Assembly: GCA_964561995.1 (NCBI GenBank)
Contig: CAZLQZ010000001.1
Location: 20,867 to 44,866 of the forward strand
DNA length: 24,000 bases
Reading direction: 5' to 3'
From: an uncultured Methanosarcinales archaeon
GTDB lineage: Archaea; Nanobdellota; Nanobdellia; Woesearchaeales; JABIAG01
The position numbers and the translations under genes were made by a program. Shown here one piece after another: positions 4,390 through 19,055 of this stretch. Position 1 is the first letter of the stretch. Each line of letters starts with the position of its first letter. The notes under the pieces are model-generated. The model was not told where the DNA came from, made no database searches, and worked only from the letters and a program-made list of their open reading frames with translations.

Positions 4390-5061
4390 ATGAAAGGAAT
4401 AACTAAAACTATACTTGTAGTTATAATAATAATACTTGCTTTATTTGTTGTTAAAGAAGTAATGAGAATAAATACAAAATCGGTGACGGGCAATCTTGTT
4501 CTTGACTCAGTAAATTTAGAAGATCCATTTCTAGGTCCTAAAGACGCGGAATTAGTTGTAATTGAATATTCTGAATTTCAATGTCCTTATTGTTCTGCCG
4601 CAGTTGGTACACATGAGCAATTAGTTCAAAGATTTAAAAGTTCAATGCCTGATTGGGAAGCATCAGTTCCAAAACTAGAAGAACTTGCAAGAGAAGGAAA
4701 AATAAAATTTATCTTTAAACATTTCCCATTAGATTTTCACGAATATGCCCAAATTGCTGCAGAAGCATCTGAAGCTGCAAATGCACAAGGGAAGTTTTGG
4801 GAATTTCATGATGAACTGTTTAAAACTGCTGGAAATTTTGATGAAGATACTTTAATTGAAATCGCAGAAGATTTGGAATTAGATGTAGAAAGATTTAAAG
4901 CCGAATTAGATGCTGGAGTTTATACCGAGTCAGTTACAAAAGATAGATTGGAAGGAGTGCAGCAAGGTATTAGAGGAACTCCTGCTTTTTTAGTAAATGG
5001 TAAGTTAATTTCAGGAGCTCAACCTTTTAGTGTTTTTGAAAAAGAACTTGGATTAGAGTAG
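4390..5061 (+). CDS. DsbA-family thiol:disulfide oxidoreductase, membrane-anchored (223 aa)
   Basis: N-terminal hydrophobic helix (ILVVIIIILALFVV). CPYC active-site motif preceded by VIEYSEFQ. C-terminal GTPAFLVNG typical of the DsbA/thioredoxin fold. TTTTTAAATAT (4360-4370) lies about 26 nt upstream of the ATG. Confidence 0.8.
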   Translation: MKGITKTILVVIIIILALFVVKEVMRINTKSVTGNLVLDSVNLEDPFLGPKDAELVVIEYSEFQCPYCSAAVGTHEQLVQRFKSSMPDWEASVPKLEELAREGKIKFIFKHFPLDFHEYAQIAAEASEAANAQGKFWEFHDELFKTAGNFDEDTLIEIAEDLELDVERFKAELDAGVYTESVTKDRLEGVQQGIRGTPAFLVNGKLISGAQPFSVFEKELGLE

Positions 5062-5096
5062 ACTGCTTTAAGTAGATTCAATTCTTTAAACTTTTT

Positions 5097-5135
5097 TTAT
5101 TTTTCAAATTGTTTTTAACTTATTTTTCAAATTGT
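5097..5135 (+). repeat. two direct copies of TTATTTTTCAAATTGT (5097-5112 and 5120-5135), candidate origin-recognition-box-like elements
   Basis: Exact 16-nt direct repeat with 23-nt periodicity in the 141-bp intergenic region immediately upstream of orc1/cdc6. Confidence 0.45.
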
Positions 5136-5172
5136 CAAATTTAGTTAATTAATAGTTAGAAAAACACAAAAT

Positions 5173-5180
5173 TTTATATA
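5173..5180 (+). promoter_or_regulatory. TATA box of orc1/cdc6 (leaderless spacing)
   Basis: TTTATATA is centred about 26 nt upstream of the ATG at 5203. Confidence 0.5.
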
Positions 5181-5202
5181 TTCTAATTCTATTAAATAAT
5201 TT

Positions 5203-6279
5203 ATGTCAATGTTTAAAGATATGCTAAAGGATACTGAATCTTTATTTACAGGAAATGTGGAAGCACTCGATTTTGATTATATTCCTAAATTAATTCCTTT
5301 TAGAGAAAATGAACAAAGAGAGATTGCTACTTGCATTAAACCTATTTTTCAAAAAAGAAATGGAAGAAATATTTTAGTTCACGGTAAACCCGGAATTGGA
5401 AAAACAGTTGCAATTAAACATTTATTAAAAGATTTGGAAGATGAAACGGATGATATTTTGTCAGTTTTTATTAATTGTTGGCAAAGTAATACTACTTATA
5501 AAATCATGCTTGAAATTTGTGAACAATTAGGGTATAAATTCATTCAAAATAAAAAAACTGAAGATTTAGTAAAAGTAATAAAAGAAATAATTAATAAGAA
5601 TGCAGGTGCCGTTTTTGTTTTTGATGAAATTGATAAGGCTGAAGATTCAGACTTTTTATATACTTTATTGGAAGTTATATTTAGAAAATCTATTATTATT
5701 ATAACAAATTATAAGTCTTGGTTTACAGACCTTGATGAAAGAACTAAATCAAGATTAATTCCTGACTTATTAGAATTTAAAGAATATAATGAAAAAGAAA
5801 CAATTGAAATTTTAAAACAAAGAATGAAATATGCTTTTGTTTCAGGTGTTTGGGATGACGATGCTTTTTTGATGCTTGCAAAAAAGTCCACTCAATTAAA
5901 AGATATACGAACTGGCTTATATTTGATTAAAGAGGCAGGTCAACATGCAGAAGACCAATCCAAAAAACGAATAGAAAAAGAAGATGCCAAAATTGCACTT
6001 TCAAAACTTGAAAGTTTTTCAATAAAAAATAGTGCTAGTTTAATCGATGTTGAAAAAGAAATTCTTGATATGATTAAAAAAAATACTGGAACTAAAATCG
6101 GGGACCTATTTAAATTATATTCTGCAAAGGGTAAAGATATTAGTTACAAAACCTTTCAAAGAAAAATTAAAAAATTAGAAGAAGGAAAGTTTATTTTCAT
6201 TAAAAAGGTAGGTGGTGGAACTGAAGGTAAAACTTCAATTATTAATTATGGTGAAAGTAAAAAATTGACCGATTTTTAA
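5203..6279 (+). CDS. cdc6: Orc1/Cdc6 replication initiator AAA+ ATPase (358 aa)
   Basis: N-terminal LIPFRENEQREI, Walker A HGKPGIGKT, Walker B VFVFDEID, and a C-terminal winged-helix-like region. This is the typical archaeal Orc1/Cdc6 architecture. Confidence 0.9.
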   Translation: MSMFKDMLKDTESLFTGNVEALDFDYIPKLIPFRENEQREIATCIKPIFQKRNGRNILVHGKPGIGKTVAIKHLLKDLEDETDDILSVFINCWQSNTTYKIMLEICEQLGYKFIQNKKTEDLVKVIKEIINKNAGAVFVFDEIDKAEDSDFLYTLLEVIFRKSIIIITNYKSWFTDLDERTKSRLIPDLLEFKEYNEKETIEILKQRMKYAFVSGVWDDDAFLMLAKKSTQLKDIRTGLYLIKEAGQHAEDQSKKRIEKEDAKIALSKLESFSIKNSASLIDVEKEILDMIKKNTGTKIGDLFKLYSAKGKDISYKTFQRKIKKLEEGKFIFIKKVGGGTEGKTSIINYGESKKLTDF

Positions 6280-6330: not shown

Positions 6331-9300
6331 ATGTCTTTAGAAGATTCTCTAAAAGATAATGAAGTTCTATTAACGCAGGTAGCTGTAAGAGATAATCAGC
6401 AATCTTCTCAACAACTTCAGTTAAGGTTTAAAGGATTGTCTGATGTTTATGTTCCTTATCAACACACTTATTTTTCCATTCCACTTTCTCAAACAGAGGC
6501 ACAAGATTTAATTGAACAAATTCAAAATCCACTCATTAACGGCCAGAAAAATCCCTTTTATGGTTACCAGCATACTAAAACTTTGGTGCAAGGATATTTT
6601 AACATAGTTCAAGTTACTGCTCCAAGAACCGAATCTAAAGCTTTTCAAAGATTAAGATATAAAACAAGATGTGGTGAGTTTAATTTAAGTTCTTTAAAAA
6701 GTAAAGGAAAAAAATTATTTAGGGGTGGCTATTTTAATAGACAAGCACGTTGGAACTTACAAGACGAAGAAAACTATTTGTTGCCAGGTATAATTGTAGA
6801 AACGGATAATGAATTAATTACAATTTTAGAAAAAAAAAGACAGTTGGATAAATTAAATAGTTCTTTAGATAAAATAAGAAGACATACAAAGGTTGGTTTT
6901 AAACAAGGTAGTTATTCTGGACAATGGAGTAATGCTGTTTCACGTTATAAAAAACTATTAAAATCTGACAATAGTTTTAATGCTAAAAAATCATTTCAAG
7001 AAACTAAATCTTTTTCATATTTAAATCAAGAAACAATTGAATTAATTGAAGATATAAACTCTTATGAAAATAGTTTTGAAACTTTAATTCGTGGCTTTGG
7101 AGATTTAGATTATAATTACAATTCAATTAAAAAGAAAGGAACTTATGGGTTATTTCTTAATCAAAGGCCAACTTTAAAATTCAAAAGACAGCTAACACTT
7201 GATGAATGGATGAATTTAAAGTTCATGTTTTTTGATATTGAAACTCCTAAATTTTTAGAAAATAATTATGAAGTTACTCAAGTTGCCGCAATTTTAACAG
7301 AAAATCAACAAGTAAAACAAAGAATAGTTTTTAATAAACAGGCAACAAAGATTACTGAAGTAAAAGGACATACAATTCGTTCAGGTTATGATACCGACAG
7401 AGACATGATTGGAGATATTTCAAATTGGGCCTTACAGAACGATATTGAAGTTATTTCGGCTTACAATATCAATTTCGATGCTTCTATGTTAAAAGAAAGG
7501 GGCGATCTTTATGTTGGCGAGGCCGAAGATGAACCAAAAAAAGATGTTACTAAAAAATTCTTTGAAAGATTTAGGATGGATGGTGGTTTTTGTGTAGACC
7601 TTTTAAGGTTAGGTCAAACTTTTTTAAGGGGATTTGCAAATGCTAAACTTGAAAATTTGTCTAGATTTTTTGGAGGTATGAGTGGATATAGAAAAACAAT
7701 TTCGTATGCTGAAATGGCTGAACTTCAATATCTTTCGGAAGGAATTGATGTAGAGCTTAGTTCATCAACAAAAGAAAAGCTTGAAACAATTCCTGGAAAT
7801 AGGGAAGTTGCAGCTCAAAGATTAATTTTAGAATATGTTTGTGATGATACTGAAGAAATGCCGAAATTATTATTTGGAGATTCAAATAAATTTCAAGAGA
7901 AAGAATTAACAAGAAATTGTTTGGAAAATTTAGTTTGGATGGCTGAAAATTTCAAACTTGATTTTATAAAATTACTTTATTCTCCTACTGCTTTAAGAGA
8001 TGTTTTTGATAGGGGCTACTTTAAACATATGGGAATACAAAGAGATGAGATTTATCCGAGAGGCATTAAATATTTTGAAAATGAAGTTAATAATAACAAG
8101 AACGCTTTGAAAGGGTTTATGAACAATTTGTTTGGGATTGAATCTAGTAATGGAACTTTTCATAGGGTGGAAAGAAGATTAATTCCGGTAGGATTTTTAT
8201 TAAGACATTATTTATCTAAAAAAACTCATTCAGTAAGAGATTTTATGGGTTATGTTGAAGAAAGAGTTCAAAAAGGAAGTCATCATGAATTTGTTTTTCT
8301 TTCACATTATGTTAATGGGTTAGCGGATTATATGTTGACAGATTTTGGGTCTTATTTAAGAACAAAAAAAAGATATGACCAAATCTTTTCTAAATTGACA
8401 ACTGAGCAACCTTATAAAGAAACGGTTTTAGGATTAAATGAACTTTTTTTACATAGGTATGGAAGGACTAGATTAGGTTTACAAATGGCAAATGGTGTGC
8501 TAGGGGAAGTTTTAAGTCAAGGAATTTATGATAGGGAAGGAAATTATAGAATTGTAAAAGCTGCAGATATTAAACATTTAAAAGAATTGAATCAATTTAG
8601 ATCTTTTGTTAAAAATTCTGGAAATAATTTTTTAGATATGCTTTTAGAATCAAATAGACTTACAACTTTAGAATTGTATAAACTTTTTTGGACTACATTT
8701 TATTTGGGTAGTAGTACTTCTAAAAATTTTGGAAATCATTTGATACATCCTGCAAGTATGGCAATGCATTTTGAAAATGAAGCAATGGCAATAAAAGAAG
8801 ATTTGAATAAATATGGTGAAATTTTATCTGTAAATTCTCCTTATGTTTATTTTCTTCCAGAAAAAAATGAATCTGATTTTTCAAAGTCTGTGGTAAATAG
8901 AGTTACTAATTCAAAAAGAGTTTATTGTTGTCCTGCTCAAACTGTGATTGAAGATTTATTTATTGCAGATAAAGAATATTCTAAGGAAGACGGTTTTTTT
9001 AAAGGAGTTAAGATTAAAGATGGTCCAGCTTATTTTTCAAATGCATTTTATTCTAATATTTATCTTAATACTTTAGAACATTTTTGGCAAGAAGATTATG
9101 TTTCTGGGATTAGAGGTATTATTTCAGCATTTAAAGATTTGAAGTCAAAAAGAATAGTAACTGAAGATGAAAAAATGAATTTTTTGTTTTTTAATAAGTC
9201 TAAGAAATGTTATTTTGGTTTTCAAGATTTTGAGAAATATATGTTTAGATTGGCAGAAGATGAAGAAGAAGATAAACTTCCAGTTCATCCTATTTCTCAA

Positions 9301-9522
9301 TTTAATCCAGATTATTCAATGTATTTATGGGACTTTTCAAGAAAAATAAAACCTTTTATTAAATCTTTAATTCCCAAAGTTCAAGAAAATTTTTCTGTTG
9401 ATGAGTTAAGAATTATTGAACAAATTGTTAAAATTAAAAAGCCAAAAAAGCCTTCTCTCGACGATTTACCTTTATTCACTGGTCAAGGTGTGTCCAGTGG
9501 TGAAACCGTTTTAAACCTTTGA
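6331..9522 (+). CDS. divergent family-B DNA polymerase-like protein (1063 aa) with canonical 3'-5' exonuclease motifs and non-canonical polymerase motifs
   Basis: Exo I LKFMFFDIET (D302/E304), Exo II AYNINFDASML (N381/D383) and Exo III LEYVCDD (Y502/D506) occur with PolB-like spacing. The N-terminal VYVPYQHTYF resembles the PolB N-domain. No DxxSLYPS or YxDTDS motif; only degenerate look-alikes (DFIKLLYSP, KGFMNNLFG, YMLTDFG). TTTTAAAG (6303-6310) lies about 26 nt upstream of the ATG. Confidence 0.7.
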   Translation: MSLEDSLKDNEVLLTQVAVRDNQQSSQQLQLRFKGLSDVYVPYQHTYFSIPLSQTEAQDLIEQIQNPLINGQKNPFYGYQHTKTLVQGYFNIVQVTAPRTESKAFQRLRYKTRCGEFNLSSLKSKGKKLFRGGYFNRQARWNLQDEENYLLPGIIVETDNELITILEKKRQLDKLNSSLDKIRRHTKVGFKQGSYSGQWSNAVSRYKKLLKSDNSFNAKKSFQETKSFSYLNQETIELIEDINSYENSFETLIRGFGDLDYNYNSIKKKGTYGLFLNQRPTLKFKRQLTLDEWMNLKFMFFDIETPKFLENNYEVTQVAAILTENQQVKQRIVFNKQATKITEVKGHTIRSGYDTDRDMIGDISNWALQNDIEVISAYNINFDASMLKERGDLYVGEAEDEPKKDVTKKFFERFRMDGGFCVDLLRLGQTFLRGFANAKLENLSRFFGGMSGYRKTISYAEMAELQYLSEGIDVELSSSTKEKLETIPGNREVAAQRLILEYVCDDTEEMPKLLFGDSNKFQEKELTRNCLENLVWMAENFKLDFIKLLYSPTALRDVFDRGYFKHMGIQRDEIYPRGIKYFENEVNNNKNALKGFMNNLFGIESSNGTFHRVERRLIPVGFLLRHYLSKKTHSVRDFMGYVEERVQKGSHHEFVFLSHYVNGLADYMLTDFGSYLRTKKRYDQIFSKLTTEQPYKETVLGLNELFLHRYGRTRLGLQMANGVLGEVLSQGIYDREGNYRIVKAADIKHLKELNQFRSFVKNSGNNFLDMLLESNRLTTLELYKLFWTTFYLGSSTSKNFGNHLIHPASMAMHFENEAMAIKEDLNKYGEILSVNSPYVYFLPEKNESDFSKSVVNRVTNSKRVYCCPAQTVIEDLFIADKEYSKEDGFFKGVKIKDGPAYFSNAFYSNIYLNTLEHFWQEDYVSGIRGIISAFKDLKSKRIVTEDEKMNFLFFNKSKKCYFGFQDFEKYMFRLAEDEEEDKLPVHPISQFNPDYSMYLWDFSRKIKPFIKSLIPKVQENFSVDELRIIEQIVKIKKPKKPSLDDLPLFTGQGVSSGETVLNL

Positions 9523-9587
9523 ATTCTTGATTCTTAACAGTTTATTTATAAGTGAAAAAAACCCATTGGACATCTTCTGAAATAGGG

Positions 9588-9595
9588 TATATAAA
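9588..9595 (+). promoter_or_regulatory. candidate TATA box (TATATAAA) for the micro-ORF cassette or a small RNA
   Basis: Near-consensus archaeal TATA. The predicted TSS near 9618-9620 lies upstream of the hairpin at 9634 and the first SD at 9683. Confidence 0.3.
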
Positions 9596-9633
9596 GGATT
9601 TAGTGTATCTAATAATTATTGTTTTAAGAATTA

Positions 9634-9675
9634 GGGCAGGGATTACCCCCAATTAAACCTGCCCGGGATTTTTTT
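9634..9675 (+). terminator. GC-rich hairpin followed by T7 tract (terminator or attenuator-like element)
   Basis: GGGCAGG (9634-9640) pairs perfectly with CCTGCCC (9658-9664) around a 17-nt loop, followed by T7 at 9669-9675. It lies 112 nt after the PolB-like stop and 19 nt before micro-ORF1. Confidence 0.5.
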
Positions 9676-9693
9676 ATAACAAGGAGGAGAAAA

Positions 9694-9801
9694 ATGATAG
9701 ACTTAAGCCAAAAAACCATACAAAATTTGTTTTTTAATCAAATAAAAGAGTTAAGCGTTGATAGCTTTGAAATGCAATGTAGTGAGTGGTGGTTAAGATG
9801 A
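9694..9801 (+). CDS. micro-ORF1, 35 aa (MIDLSQKTIQNLFFNQIKELSVDSFEMQCSEWWLR)
   Basis: ATG at 9694 is preceded by AAGGAGGAG (9681-9689), complementary to the 16S 3' end CACCTCCT, with the same short spacing as the SD of the gene at 17769. The TGA stop overlaps the next ATG (ATGA). Below the 60-aa cutoff of the ORF track. Confidence 0.4.
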   Translation: MIDLSQKTIQNLFFNQIKELSVDSFEMQCSEWWLR

Positions 9802-9905
9802 TGGAAATAGATGAGTTCGCAATTGGACTAGTAGAAGAAGCACAACATATTGGAGAATTAAGTTTTGATGAAGCTGAATTTATAATTGGCTATATTTCAT
9901 CATAG
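9798..9905 (+). CDS. micro-ORF2, 35 aa, very acidic (MMEIDEFAIGLVEEAQHIGELSFDEAEFIIGYISS)
   Basis: ATG at 9798 overlaps the ORF1 stop (translational-coupling geometry). Shares an I-x-ELS-[VF]-D-x-x-E core with ORF1 at nearly the same position. The TAG stop is embedded in the next SD (TAGGAGGTG). Confidence 0.4.
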   Translation: MMEIDEFAIGLVEEAQHIGELSFDEAEFIIGYISS

Positions 9906-9919
9906 GAGGTGAAAAAATC

Positions 9920-10027
9920 ATATTCAAAAAAAAGAATTACATATCATGGGACGAGTACATATGCAAAGTACACGTATTAGAAAACTTTGTTTGGAAACAA
10001 AGTACTAGAAGAACTTTCTTGCCTTAA
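9920..10027 (+). CDS. possible micro-ORF3, 35-36 codons, basic (IFKKKNYISWDEYICKVHVLENFVWKQSTRRTFLP); non-canonical start
   Basis: A perfect SD, AGGAGGTGA (9904-9912), is followed at 4-7 nt only by near-cognate codons (ATC 9917, ATA 9920). From ATA the frame is again exactly 108 nt and stops at 10025-10027, at the foot of the terminator hairpin. No ATG/GTG/TTG start is available, so the call is weak. Confidence 0.2.
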   Translation: MFKKKNYISWDEYICKVHVLENFVWKQSTRRTFLP

Positions 10028-10072
10028 ACACCTCAAAAATGCACCTCTTGCCAGGAGGTGTTTATTTTTTTT
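10026..10072 (+). terminator. hairpin plus T8 terminator-like element with two alternative 5' arms
   Basis: AAACACCTC (10026-10034) pairs with GAGGTGTTT (10055-10063). An inner CACCTC (10042-10047) can pair with the same GAGGTG (10055-10060). T8 at 10065-10072. Confidence 0.55.
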
Positions 10073-10116
10073 AATATATGCAAAAGGTTTTTAAATAATC
10101 TTTCAATAAAATAAAC

Positions 10117-10674
10117 ATGCGAGTTGTTGATAAACAGGAAATTAAAATTTACAAAAAGGAGTTCTTTGATAAAATCAATTCCGGAAGAATTTTTATTTAT
10201 CCAACTGATACAATTTATGGTTTGGGTTGTGATGCAACCAATCAACAAGCTGTAGGAAAGTTAAGAGAAGCAAAAGAAAGAGTATCAAATCCTTTTTCTG
10301 TTATTGCTCCATCAAAAGATTGGATTAAAAATCATTGTGAAGTTACCAAAGACCATTTATCCTTACTTCCTGGTCCAGTAACATTAATTTTAAAATTGAA
10401 AAATAAAAATGCTATTGCCGGAAATGTTAACAATGAAATGCAAACATTGGGAGTAAGAATTCCTGAACATTGGATTAGTGATGTTGTTTCAGATTTGGGA
10501 AAACCTATTGTAACAACTAGTGTAAATAAACAAGGTGAAGAATTTATGGTTGATTTAGATTCAATAAATTCTGATATTAAAGGAAAAATAGATTTTACAA
10601 TTTATGAAGGGGAAAAAATAGGAAAACCTTCAAAGATAATCAATACTGTTTCTAATGAAGTTATTCAAAGATAA
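10117..10674 (+). CDS. tsaC: L-threonylcarbamoyladenylate synthase, YrdC/TsaC-type (185 aa)
   Basis: IFIYPTDTIYGLGCDA, SNPFSVI, LPGPVTLIL, LGVRIP and VTTSVN are hallmark YrdC/Sua5-domain motifs. TTTTTAAATA (10088-10097) lies about 26 nt upstream of the ATG. Confidence 0.85.
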   Translation: MRVVDKQEIKIYKKEFFDKINSGRIFIYPTDTIYGLGCDATNQQAVGKLREAKERVSNPFSVIAPSKDWIKNHCEVTKDHLSLLPGPVTLILKLKNKNAIAGNVNNEMQTLGVRIPEHWISDVVSDLGKPIVTTSVNKQGEEFMVDLDSINSDIKGKIDFTIYEGEKIGKPSKIINTVSNEVIQR

Positions 10675-17768: not shown

Positions 17769-19055
17769 ATGAAAAAAATATTTGTATTAGTGTTAACTAT
17801 ATTACTTTTACCAGTTGTTAATGCTGTTAGAATTGAAGAAATTTATTATGACCCAGTTGGGACCGAATCTGGTGGAGAAGCAGTTGTGCTTTTTAATCCT
17901 GATAATTCAACTTTAGATCTTTCGGGTTGGGTATTGAAAACAGAAACTTCTGTGACTGACGTCACATTGTCTTTAGAATCTTTTATTTCACCTTATGGAT
18001 ATTTTTTAATTAGTGATGTTAATTGGGATATTAACAAAGATAATTCAGATTGGAATTCTGCAGATCATGAAGAGGCAATGACTTTGGGTAATTCAGATTC
18101 AGGAATTGAATTATTTGATTTTGAATTCAATTCCGTCGATAAGGTTGGATGGGGTAATTCTGTTGAAATAGAAGATGGTATGTTTGAATCTAATCCAGCT
18201 TTACAGGTTTCTTCAGGTATGTCTTTAAAAAGAGTTCAAGATACTAATGACAATTTTGTTGATTTTATTGAATCTATTCCAGAATTAAAATCTAGTAGTT
18301 CAATTTTCGAATCAAATTCAACACATCGTGGCATTTATTTAAGTTTAAATATTATTGATTATAATACTTTTGTTGATTTTATTAATATTACTGATGATTT
18401 AGATTTAAATGGTTTTCAAATTTTACCTTCCCCTGGAGAAAATAAAGAAATTTCAATAATTGTTTTAGCATCACATGAATTTAATAATAGTTTTATTAAT
18501 ATTTCTTGTGAAGGTATCCCAATGAATTTTATTGAAGAGGTTAATTTAACTTCTGCTTTTTTTGAAACCAAAATTAATATTAGTTATAATACTTCTCCAG
18601 GAGTTTATTCATTAAATTTTGAATATTCTAATGTTAATAAAAATGAAATTTATGAAATTATGTCTTTATCAGCAATTGAAATAGATTCTTTAGATTTAAA
18701 TTTGGATATTAAAGATAAAAATAAAGAATATTTTTTACTAGGTGATGAAGATATAGAAACATCTTCTTTACCTACTATAAAAAATATAGGTAATGTTGAA
18801 TTAGATCTGGCAATAAAAGCAACCAGTATAGAATATGAAGCAAATATCTTTGATTTAAATAATGTAAAATATTCATTTAATAATGATTTTGATTCAGTAT
18901 GGTCTGGTAATTTAATTTCTGAATTTGAAATTATTGATTTGGACCTTTTACCTAGTTTTGCAAATGAATTAGGTTTTAAGTTTTTCATACCTTCTTCAAC
19001 ATTAAAGGGAAATTATACTGGAACAATAATTGTTTCTGCATTGGAATCGCAATGA
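17769..19055 (+). CDS. secreted lamin-tail-domain (LTD) protein (428 aa)
   Basis: Signal peptide MKKIFVLVLTILLLPVVNA. VRIEEIYYDPVGTESGGEAVVLFNPDNSTLDLSGWVL matches the LTD consensus (I-x-E-x(n)-G-x(n)-E-x-V-x-L-x-N-x(n)-L-x-GW). Many N-x-S/T sequons. Confidence 0.65.
   Translation: MKKIFVLVLTILLLPVVNAVRIEEIYYDPVGTESGGEAVVLFNPDNSTLDLSGWVLKTETSVTDVTLSLESFISPYGYFLISDVNWDINKDNSDWNSADHEEAMTLGNSDSGIELFDFEFNSVDKVGWGNSVEIEDGMFESNPALQVSSGMSLKRVQDTNDNFVDFIESIPELKSSSSIFESNSTHRGIYLSLNIIDYNTFVDFINITDDLDLNGFQILPSPGENKEISIIVLASHEFNNSFINISCEGIPMNFIEEVNLTSAFFETKINISYNTSPGVYSLNFEYSNVNKNEIYEIMSLSAIEIDSLDLNLDIKDKNKEYFLLGDEDIETSSLPTIKNIGNVELDLAIKATSIEYEANIFDLNNVKYSFNNDFDSVWSGNLISEFEIIDLDLLPSFANELGFKFFIPSSTLKGNYTGTIIVSALESQ

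Follow-up and report, generated by a model that had tools for sequence, protein, structure and literature searches.

Two small subunits of Sulfolobus PolB1, PBP1 and PBP2 (~12 and 8 kDa), long went unnoticed and modulate this family-B polymerase; one of them is acidic-tailed (PMC5418573). In Pyrococcus, Cdc6/Orc1 binds origin recognition box (ORB) and mini-ORB elements, and a second ORB cluster lies downstream of cdc6 in Thermococcales (PMC1904270). The spRNAs of Methanosarcina mazei encode peptides of <50 amino acids on short dedicated transcripts with a structured untranslated part (bioRxiv 10.1101/2025.10.28.685009). Here we analyse a 594-nt gap (positions 9523-10116) between a polB-like gene and tsaC in an archaeal window, the window being the whole 24,000-nt stretch of DNA that was examined. 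It comes from a 231-kb European Nucleotide Archive (ENA) metagenome contig in which zero genes were called between these two genes. A reading made from the sequence alone (the sequence-only reading) had placed a cassette of three Shine-Dalgarno (SD)-led micro open reading frames, ORF1-ORF3, in this gap. On balance, and with little more than even confidence, we interpret the gap as a leadered tricistronic operon of three uncharacterised microproteins of 35, 35 and 36 codons that would form a small helical hetero-complex on a housekeeping machine. The feature is larger than had been seen: it is a coupled operon with its own conserved promoter boxes, a leader hairpin and an orc1/cdc6 neighbourhood. 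The coordinates are collected in Table 1, where BRE denotes the transcription factor B recognition element.

Like PBP1/PBP2, the cassette encodes very small proteins, including an acidic member, directly after a polB-like gene. PBP1 has a 78-residue Cys-containing domain and PBP2 a winged helix, whereas the cassette peptides have 35-36 residues, are Cys-poor and are predicted to be simple helices; neither sequence similarity (PDB, E<0.1) nor fold similarity (Foldseek, 0 matches) to PBP1/PBP2 was found. The polB neighbour is moreover peculiar to the window, and the comparison is drawn as an analogy only, with no membership claimed. The M. mazei spRNAs resemble the cassette in peptide size, in the short dedicated transcript and in the structured untranslated part; they differ in that there is no sequence relationship and in that the cassette consists of three coupled cistrons kept across a whole DPANN lineage.

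Table 1. Features of the cassette and its flanking genes in window coordinates.
Feature	Position	Strand	Details
Orc1/Cdc6 gene (AAA_22, Cdc6_lid)	5203-6279		Upstream of the polB-like gene, 3.4 kb upstream of the cassette
polB-like gene	6331-9522		Directly upstream of the cassette
Inverted pair of CACTGG(A/T)CA boxes	9477..9499	.	CACTGGTCA ... TGTCCAGTG; within the last polB-like codons
Promoter-proximal box	9564..9573	+	CATTGGACAT; family consensus (C)CACTGGACAT; ~10 nt upstream of BRE/TATA
BRE/TATA promoter	9580..9595	+	aaataggg TATATAAA; TATATAAA at 9588-9595
Leader hairpin	9634-9664	+	GGGCAGG / 17-nt loop with CCCCC / CCTGCCC; then GGGA and T7 (9669-9675)
SD of ORF1	9682..9687	+	AGGAGG; 6-nt spacer
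ORF1	9694 (ATG)-9801 (TGA)	+	108 nt, 35 amino acids: MIDLSQKTIQNLFFNQIKELSVDSFEMQCSEWWLR
Weak SD of ORF2	Inside last ORF1 codons	+	GGTGG
ORF2	9798 (ATG)-9905 (TAG)	+	108 nt, 35 amino acids, acidic: MMEIDEFAIGLVEEAQHIGELSFDEAEFIIGYISS
Perfect 9-nt SD	9904..9912	+	AGGAGGTGA; overlaps ORF2 stop; complementary to 16S end ...GATCACCTCCT
ORF3	9917 (ATC)-10027 (TAA)	+	36 codons: (ATC)IFKKKNYISWDEYICKVHVLENFVWKQSTRRTFLP
Terminator-like hairpin	10041..10071	+	GCACCTCTTGCCAGGAGGTGT + TTATTTTTTTT; GCACCTC..GAGGTGT at 10041-10061, then T-run
tsaC (Sua5/YrdC family)	10117-10674		Downstream of the cassette

That ORF1 and ORF2 have the same length and are joined by an ATGA stop/start overlap was confirmed by coordinates and translation. 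ORF1 consists of an N-terminal helix followed by a C-terminal SF(D/E)xQ(F/C)S motif, and a protein identical to it (P0089) is present in another assembly (P-numbers denote database proteins and L-numbers related loci). ORF2 has nine acidic residues and no Lys or Arg; Asp5, Glu25, Phe28, Gly31 and Tyr32 are invariant between it and 23 database homologues. ORF3 is the basic, aromatic, single-helix member, and its seven basic residues bear out the charge contrast with ORF2 that had been described. The three frames are used in turn, one by each ORF. The cassette is indeed unannotated on this contig; elsewhere that description does not hold, as some GenBank metagenome-assembled genomes (MAGs) list homologues as hypothetical proteins.

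The concatenated window peptides gave zero matches in the protein database, and the search was therefore anchored on tsaC synteny. In the two closest genomes found in this way, L002 and L003 (a Woesearchaeota MAG), an ORF1 homologue precedes tsaC, and their DNA shows AGC/TCT serine switches together with third-position and other synonymous changes in ORF1. A profile of three ORF1 sequences then retrieved 50 metagenome loci which, with the two MAGs, gave 52. ORF1 is intact in each profile-recovered locus (37-47 codons with a GAGGTGA-type SD in front; 52 homologues), and in none of the 52 loci is its frame broken by an indel that is not a multiple of three. The ORF1 family consensus is MDLSNETIKDLFYRQIKELTLRxxDSFDLQFSGKLLEK. 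The acidic ORF2 family (...LDIYTEEGxExYVDDDxISxxE(E/Q)GFMxGYLxA) follows ORF1 in most loci, and the basic, aromatic ORF3 family (MFNFFKRKFMEWEDYKAKIDFIEDFYWQQSVRKQSIRNL) is present in many; ORF2 and ORF3 of the window align with these families over their full length. The clade nearest to the window comprises L021-L023, L032 and P0133, which shares with it the ORF3 ending ...RRTFLP or ...RSTFLP. The window ORF3 aligns end to end with those of L021 (MNFKKQGYMNWDDYVETIATIEDYTWRQSVRSTFLP) and L032 (MIFFKRK...RRTFLP), which supports it as a real gene despite its non-canonical start.

Profile searches recovered homologues of all three peptides, amounting to 345 database proteins for ORF1/ORF2 and 61 for ORF3, and an exhaustive profile search with ORF1 gave 255 clusters at 50% identity, nearly all of 28-90 residues. 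Every named homologue record is a 'hypothetical protein' of a Candidatus Woesearchaeota archaeon and, as far as named records go, the three families are confined to Candidatus Woesearchaeota. Neither the window peptides nor typical members of the families had a match in Pfam, NCBIfam, PADLOC or PHROGs, and no PDB chain matched in sequence at E<0.1. Cassette relatives were not found among 2.9 million viral contigs, and the peptide signature strings were without a match in a literature text search. Standard annotation thus misses three protein families, of 35-60 residues, that are kept throughout a major DPANN lineage under strong purifying selection.

Synonymous and non-synonymous changes were counted by the Nei-Gojobori method (NG86). 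Between L021 and L022 there were 12 synonymous versus 7 non-synonymous differences in ORF1, 11 versus 1 in ORF2 and 10 versus 2 in ORF3 (pS/pN of 0.60/0.07, 0.43/0.01 and 0.48/0.02, respectively). The family median dN/dS was 0.15 for ORF1, 0.27 for ORF2 and 0.29 for ORF3, and the pooled pN/pS was 0.28, 0.46 and 0.44 in the same order. ORF1, ORF2 and ORF3 are protein-coding genes under purifying selection; with their frames kept in relatives, the micro-ORFs are the real SD-led genes that they had been taken for. ORF1 is the universal member of the cassette. ORF2 is found in 34 of the 49 loci with enough flank, and an intact ORF3 is present in ~20 loci, whereas at least five (L040, L043, L060, L071 and L072) have a visibly disrupted one.

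The suggestion that ORF1 and ORF2 are tandem duplicates did not survive profile-profile comparison, for which hhalign returned a probability of 0.03% with one aligned column; their paralogy was rejected, and the shared ELS-x-D string is peculiar to the window genome. A different likeness was noted between ORF1 residues 8-16 and ORF3 residues ~23-31 (window 9715-9741 and ~9983-10009), with the motif I-x-(D/N)-hydrophobic-F/Y-Y/W-x-Q. MAFFT spontaneously aligned the ORF1 and ORF3 families on this common motif (TIQNLFFNQ in ORF1, VLENFVWKQ in ORF3); the hhalign E value over nine columns, 0.057, is not significant. The likeness may go back to an ancient internal duplication. P0301, a protein of 2462 residues with eight 'ORF1-like' stretches, was set aside as a low-complexity repeat protein matched by chance.

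The cistrons are closely packed in the relatives, with ORF1-to-ORF2 gaps peaking at -4, 0, +1 and +10 nt and ORF2-to-ORF3 gaps at -4, +1 and +2 nt; in several clades the SD of ORF2 lies within the last ORF1 codons (...SERWLK = ..GAGAGGTGG..). Two kinds of natural fusion were verified on DNA: ORF1 to ORF2 (P0085, locus L072) and the ORF1 N-terminal helix to ORF3 (P0181; L073/L074, three contigs). Together, the fusions and the tight stop/start spacing argue that the peptides work together. Other apparent fusions were rejected. Public ENA gene calls read TAG as Gln and TGA as Trp, which yields false fusion proteins of 84-97 residues; the 'fusions' P0001-P0007 (ORF1-Q-ORF2), P0031, P0035 and P0058 have TAG and, by inference, TGA at the junction, and the translation of the locus does not match the query. 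In the clade represented by L071 (276-284), ORF1 and ORF2 are in frame with TAG alone between them. P0066 and P0090, which appeared to be fused to larger proteins, are read-through or short-contig oddities.

Between the ORF1 N-terminal helix and the SFDxQFS motif there is a linker of 0-35 residues, depending on the lineage; insertions of 10-35 residues at this point were seen in P0228, P0252, P0256, P0262, P0280, P0294 and P0307. From this variability ORF1 can be divided into two separable modules, and such a bipartite build is typical of a peptide that touches a partner at two sites. An AlphaFold2 prediction of an ORF1-ORF2 chain (P0002, with a 100-sequence alignment) contained helices only and was not compact (pLDDT 72, pTM 0.27). 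P0181, the fusion of the ORF1 N-terminal helix to ORF3, was modelled as two helices (pLDDT 84), its ORF3 part being a single 28-residue helix (pLDDT 90-97), and a Foldseek search of this helical model against the PDB gave 0 matches. The peptides are accordingly modelled, and predicted, as short helices without a globular fold.

AGGAGG occurs eight times in the window, against 5.45 expected, and this total is ordinary. Its placement is less so: three of the eight copies lie in the gap and four others in the rRNA operon, and a binomial estimate for at least three of eight falling in 2.5% of the window is ~1e-3. The 16S 3' end reads GGATCACCTCCT. Among the 21 other long ORFs of the window, a good SD precedes one, the LTD-domain gene at 17769 (GAGGTGA); in the remainder, AT-rich promoter-like sequence runs right up to the ATG (the start regions of 24 ORFs were inspected). 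The organism therefore mostly uses leaderless-type genes, to which the cassette is an exception, and the enrichment in the gap, taken with the near-absence of SDs elsewhere, indicates that the SD cluster is real and unusual for this genome. One part of the clustering claim had to be given up. The site at 10053, counted as a third SD by the sequence-only reading, is not ribosome-binding and forms the 3' arm of the terminator hairpin GCACCTC...GAGGTGT.

The SD ahead of ORF3 is the best in the window. The ORF2 stop is embedded in it, 11 nt ahead of the ORF3 start position, and ATC 9917 follows it 4 nt later, exactly at the position of the ATG in L021, L032 and the database homologues. As had been noted, the third frame has no canonical start: it contains no ATG or GTG, and its sole TTG is the penultimate Leu codon and so not usable. 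Either ribosomes finishing ORF2 re-initiate on AUC, or the start has just been lost. Re-initiation after an adjacent stop could tolerate AUC, as is generally understood of translational coupling. That ORF3 is here a fresh pseudogene created by an ATG-to-ATC change, with ORF1 and ORF2 alone being made, is a serious contender to which we give somewhat less than an even chance. The missing start speaks for it, as do the ATG starts of 16 of the 17 called ORF3 homologues and the independent disruptions of ORF3 in the five loci named above. Its 36-codon frame is, however, otherwise intact, keeping the family Trp, Tyr and Gln and the C-terminal RRTFLP, and the SD stands at the usual family spacing.

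Upstream of ORF1, a promoter could be recognized from which we infer a transcription start near 9618-9622. In the relatives, one to four copies of the (C)CACTGGACAT box are followed after ~10 nt by a consensus BRE/TATA (cgcgtgagATATATAAA), an arrangement seen in ~30 loci. In 214 kb of related loci there are 90 box matches, 74 of them in the 900 nt that precede ORF1 and not one upstream of orc1; in the window, too, the gap upstream of orc1 (5061-5203) has no CCACTGGA box. Direct repeats fixed to the TATA box are found in most loci. Inverted pairs occur in the window, in L021 and L022 (~60 nt apart), in L045 and L062, each with an inverted box upstream of the proximal one, and in L025, where the pair is back to back as in the window. 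In L025 (2859-2882) and L026 (786-808) the back-to-back inverted pair CCACTGGACATTGATGTCCACTGG stands between the cassette and upstream tsaC and orc1 genes on the opposite strand, an arrangement that suggests an inversion with its breakpoint at the boxes. In a clade that has ORF1 only (L029, L057, L058, L064 and L066-L069), the box CCATTTGCCACTTGCCA replaces CACTGGACAT at the equal position; here ORF1 ends in ...FSGTNPL and the terminator follows directly.

Both of the GC-rich hairpin and T-tract elements that had been described as flanking the cassette were found again (9634-9675 and 10041-10071). For the leader hairpin, the number of matches expected by chance in the window is 0. Counting the window, 24 distinct loci carry it, and 87.7% of cells are paired; the GGCAGG/CCUGCC base does not vary, whereas the upper stem does, and some of its changes are compensatory. 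CACCCC is frequent in the loop, and the hairpin is succeeded by a short C-rich tail and a T-run. As T7 lies only 18 nt before the ORF1 ATG, ORF1 must be transcribed through the leader hairpin. Archaeal transcription can terminate at oligo-T tracts, and the hairpin with T7 looks either like a 5' leader of the attenuator type or like the 3' terminus of some short RNA. A role as terminator of the upstream gene was rejected because that gene is on the other strand in many loci. Rfam 15 gave nothing near threshold for window 9400-10250 (best 22.6 bits versus a gathering score of 50, E=3.9) and nothing for 22 related loci at the gathering threshold or for five of these at E<=0.5, so that no known non-coding RNA (ncRNA) explains the gap.

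Some relatives have extra elements between the leader hairpin and ORF1. One of these, found 15-25 nt ahead of the ORF1 SD in L060 (~1130-1232), L061 (~1640-1742) and L063 (~2830-2932), is a cloverleaf-like RNA of ~102 nt with acceptor arms GGCGTGG/CCACGCC, GGTTCGAA T-loop-like elements, an anticodon-like loop and minimum free-energy z-scores of -3.1 and -2.7. ARAGORN and Rfam did not recognize it in these three loci, and pieces related to it were seen in L002 and L052. It may represent a tRNA that is atypical, for instance through an intron, and that is transcribed together with the cassette. L060 also has an extra SD-led small ORF with four Cys residues (MNICIDCGTAIKDYFDRCYGCNN..., zinc-ribbon-like) between the leader hairpin and ORF1 (~620-790). 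At the other end of the cassette, a hairpin/T-run analogous to that of the window follows the last cassette ORF in the relatives, and CACCT(C/T), the 16S anti-SD sequence, stands 2-5 nt after the last cassette stop in 10 of 49 loci versus 2.4% of background windows (sites at window 10028-10034 and in L021, L029, L057, L058 and L066-L068). A second copy in the window pairs with AGGAGGTG as the terminator stem. The motif could serve SD sequestration or could simply be a GC-rich stem.

If the operon works as we favour, its promoter would fire at ~9620, some transcripts would end at T7 after the leader hairpin and others would become mRNA. ORF3 would be made by re-initiation at AUC 9917, or would be in the course of being lost. 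The peptides would assemble, with ORF1 as the hub, into a small helical hetero-complex, and this complex, or a set of docking peptides, would bind a conserved cellular machine. ORF1 is among the most conserved sequences in fast-evolving reduced genomes, which suggests contact with an essential machine. Together, a strong promoter bearing ORB-like boxes, the conserved hairpin and T-run of the leader, and coupled cistrons with SDs would amount to compact, regulated, leadered expression in a mostly leaderless organism.

The replication apparatus is the leading candidate for the partner because of the orc1/cdc6 and polB neighbours, the ORB-like boxes and the ending of ORF2, which resembles a PCNA-interacting protein (PIP) box; the lead is circumstantial and we regard it as doubtful. 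The recurrent gene order is orc1/cdc6, an acylphosphatase or Fe-S assembly gene on the other strand, the boxes, the cassette, tsaC, a metallophosphoesterase gene and RtcB. Of 40 loci, 29 have tsaC no more than 2.5 kb downstream, and of the 21 whose upstream flank extends over 2.5 kb or more, eight have orc1 within 3 kb upstream; orc1 is also upstream in L022, L026, L032, L050 and L072 (13 fetched loci overall) and in L073. The sequence-only reading had proposed a check of synteny with polB and tsaC. It is tsaC that recurs, although not near the cassette in L073/L074; none of the relatives examined has the polB-like gene between orc1 and the cassette.

The P. furiosus ORB1-3/mini-ORB oligonucleotides TTTCCACTGGA have the same core, CCACTGGA, as the cassette boxes (PMC1904270). 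Three of these boxes lie at 9477-9573 of the window, near orc1/cdc6, and the occurrence of one to four copies, sometimes inverted, downstream of orc1/cdc6 echoes the Thermococcales cluster. The cassette boxes differ from ORBs in being fixed ~10 nt upstream of BRE/TATA, mostly as direct repeats 20-21 nt apart, and in being replaced at the same place by CCATTTGCCACTTGCCA in one clade. Near them we recognized neither a distinctive AT-rich unwinding element nor a G-string, and the stretch between the window boxes is not more AT-rich than the genome.

A PIP box has the consensus Qxx[ILM]xx[FY][FYLW], usually stands at the extreme C-terminus of archaeal replication proteins and binds PCNA. Most database ORF2 homologues end in ..EQGFMKGYLGA, that is Q-x-x-M-x-x-Y-L near the C-terminus, and the motif follows an acidic stretch that is predicted to be disordered. 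The invariant Phe and Gly inside the ORF2 motif are not PIP features, and the L021 ending diverges still further than the AEFIIGYI of the window. The window contains no PCNA gene. A more specific proposal is that of a replication-coupled control module, in which the promoter would sit on Orc1/Cdc6 boxes at or near an origin, the initiator would set the levels of leader RNA and peptides, and the peptides would dock on the replisome. The PIP-like C-terminus of ORF2 would bind PCNA, and the targets of ORF1 and ORF3 would be Orc1, MCM or PolB. We consider this improbable; were it true, the cassette would be the first case described in Archaea of DNA replication being regulated by microproteins, here in genome-reduced DPANN cells. 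With a replication link of any kind, the peptides would represent a class of accessory factors new to archaeal replication. Without one, the families still merit Pfam-type models so that they stop being missed.

Several points weigh against the favoured interpretation and its replication lead. The three-part complex cannot be obligatory, because ORF3 is absent or disrupted in many loci and lacks a canonical start here. AlphaFold2 gave no confident ORF1-ORF2 contact, the model being that of an artificial single chain with an unpaired alignment (pTM 0.27). The boxes appear to fit a transcription-factor site better than a classical origin, given their fixed TATA distance, the direct repeats 20-21 nt apart and their absence upstream of orc1. 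The PIP-like Gln is missing in the window ORF2 and in many relatives (EEGFM.GYL). The adjacency to tsaC is tighter than that to orc1, so the replication link could be mere lineage synteny, and the proposed function is deduced from genomic context only.

The same adjacency underlies a different assignment, by which the peptides are translation or tRNA-modification accessory factors, such as partners of TsaC or KEOPS, and the link to tsaC is functional. The tsaC neighbourhood persists across TsaC divergence down to 52% identity, and other neighbours are RtcB, SerRS, S8e and diphthamide synthase. Between the cassette and tsaC there is, however, a terminator hairpin, and tsaC appears independent and leaderless, having no SD and a TATA-like stretch ~25 nt upstream; an aquaporin gene intervenes in L002, and L073/L074 are without a nearby tsaC. 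GFMKGY of ORF2 was tried as a stand-in for the PGM...HY loop of Sua5 and rejected: the two are spaced differently, and TTSVN, the Thr signature of the TsaC type, is present in the local TsaC, which should therefore not need a Sua5-like loop in trans (PMC10321239). We judge this assignment unlikely. The downstream position of tsaC has also been weighed for a role of the ORFs in cis, as leader or arrest peptides that tune downstream transcription together with the leader hairpin and T-run. Arrest peptides are typically short and strongly conserved, and the 5' leader does hold a hairpin and a T-run. Here, conservation spans all three peptides whole and not merely a C-terminal arrest motif, the natural fusions link the peptides mutually and not to a downstream gene, a terminator follows the cassette, and the leader hairpin is upstream of the ORFs rather than inside or after them, which makes a cis role very unlikely.

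A toxin-antitoxin or inhibitor-effector pair, in which acidic ORF2 neutralises basic ORF3, had been proposed by analogy. The cassette shares with type II toxin-antitoxin systems small, adjacent, translationally coupled genes of opposite charge. It differs in having no match in PADLOC, Pfam, NCBIfam or PHROGs, in a chromosomal position fixed across dozens of Woesearchaeota contigs with 0 matches on viral contigs, and in a third partner, ORF1, which the pair model leaves out and which is the sole universal member. The putative toxin ORF3 is dispensable, being often lost or broken while ORF2 persists, and is without a canonical start here; it is predicted to be a soluble amphipathic helix and not a membrane peptide or nuclease fold. 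The analogy thus fails on family, on mobility and on retention of two components, and we hold such a pair to be highly improbable. A structured ncRNA with incidental ORFs, or the frameshifted remnant of one ~105-codon gene, would account for the use of three frames in turn, for relatives in which ORF1 and ORF2 are in frame with one TAG between them and for the one real fusion of these two. Rfam gave no match even at E=10, and the ORFs accumulate substitutions in the manner of protein genes. In dozens of loci, among which gaps and frames vary, every cistron comes with an SD and a start of its own, and no matching protein is longer than the fusions. A known ncRNA and a frameshifted single gene were thereby ruled out, and what is left of this explanation is hardly credible.

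The window is AT-rich (GC ~29%) and contains a 16S-tRNAAla-23S operon; its GC skew over 24 kb was uninformative. A metallophosphoesterase gene comes downstream of tsaC. The product of the polB-like gene (1063 amino acids) has a weak match to the family-B exonuclease domain only (PF03104, E 5e-6); this may be a polymerase gene that has diverged very far or was inserted recently. The minus-strand ORF at 10033-10248 (71 codons), antisense to the tsaC start and the terminator, is without homologue or signal and is almost certainly spurious. The gap upstream of orc1 (5061-5203) is AT-rich and contains a 16-nt direct repeat, TTATTTTTCAAATTGT, at 5097-5112 and 5120-5135, which could be a promoter or origin element.

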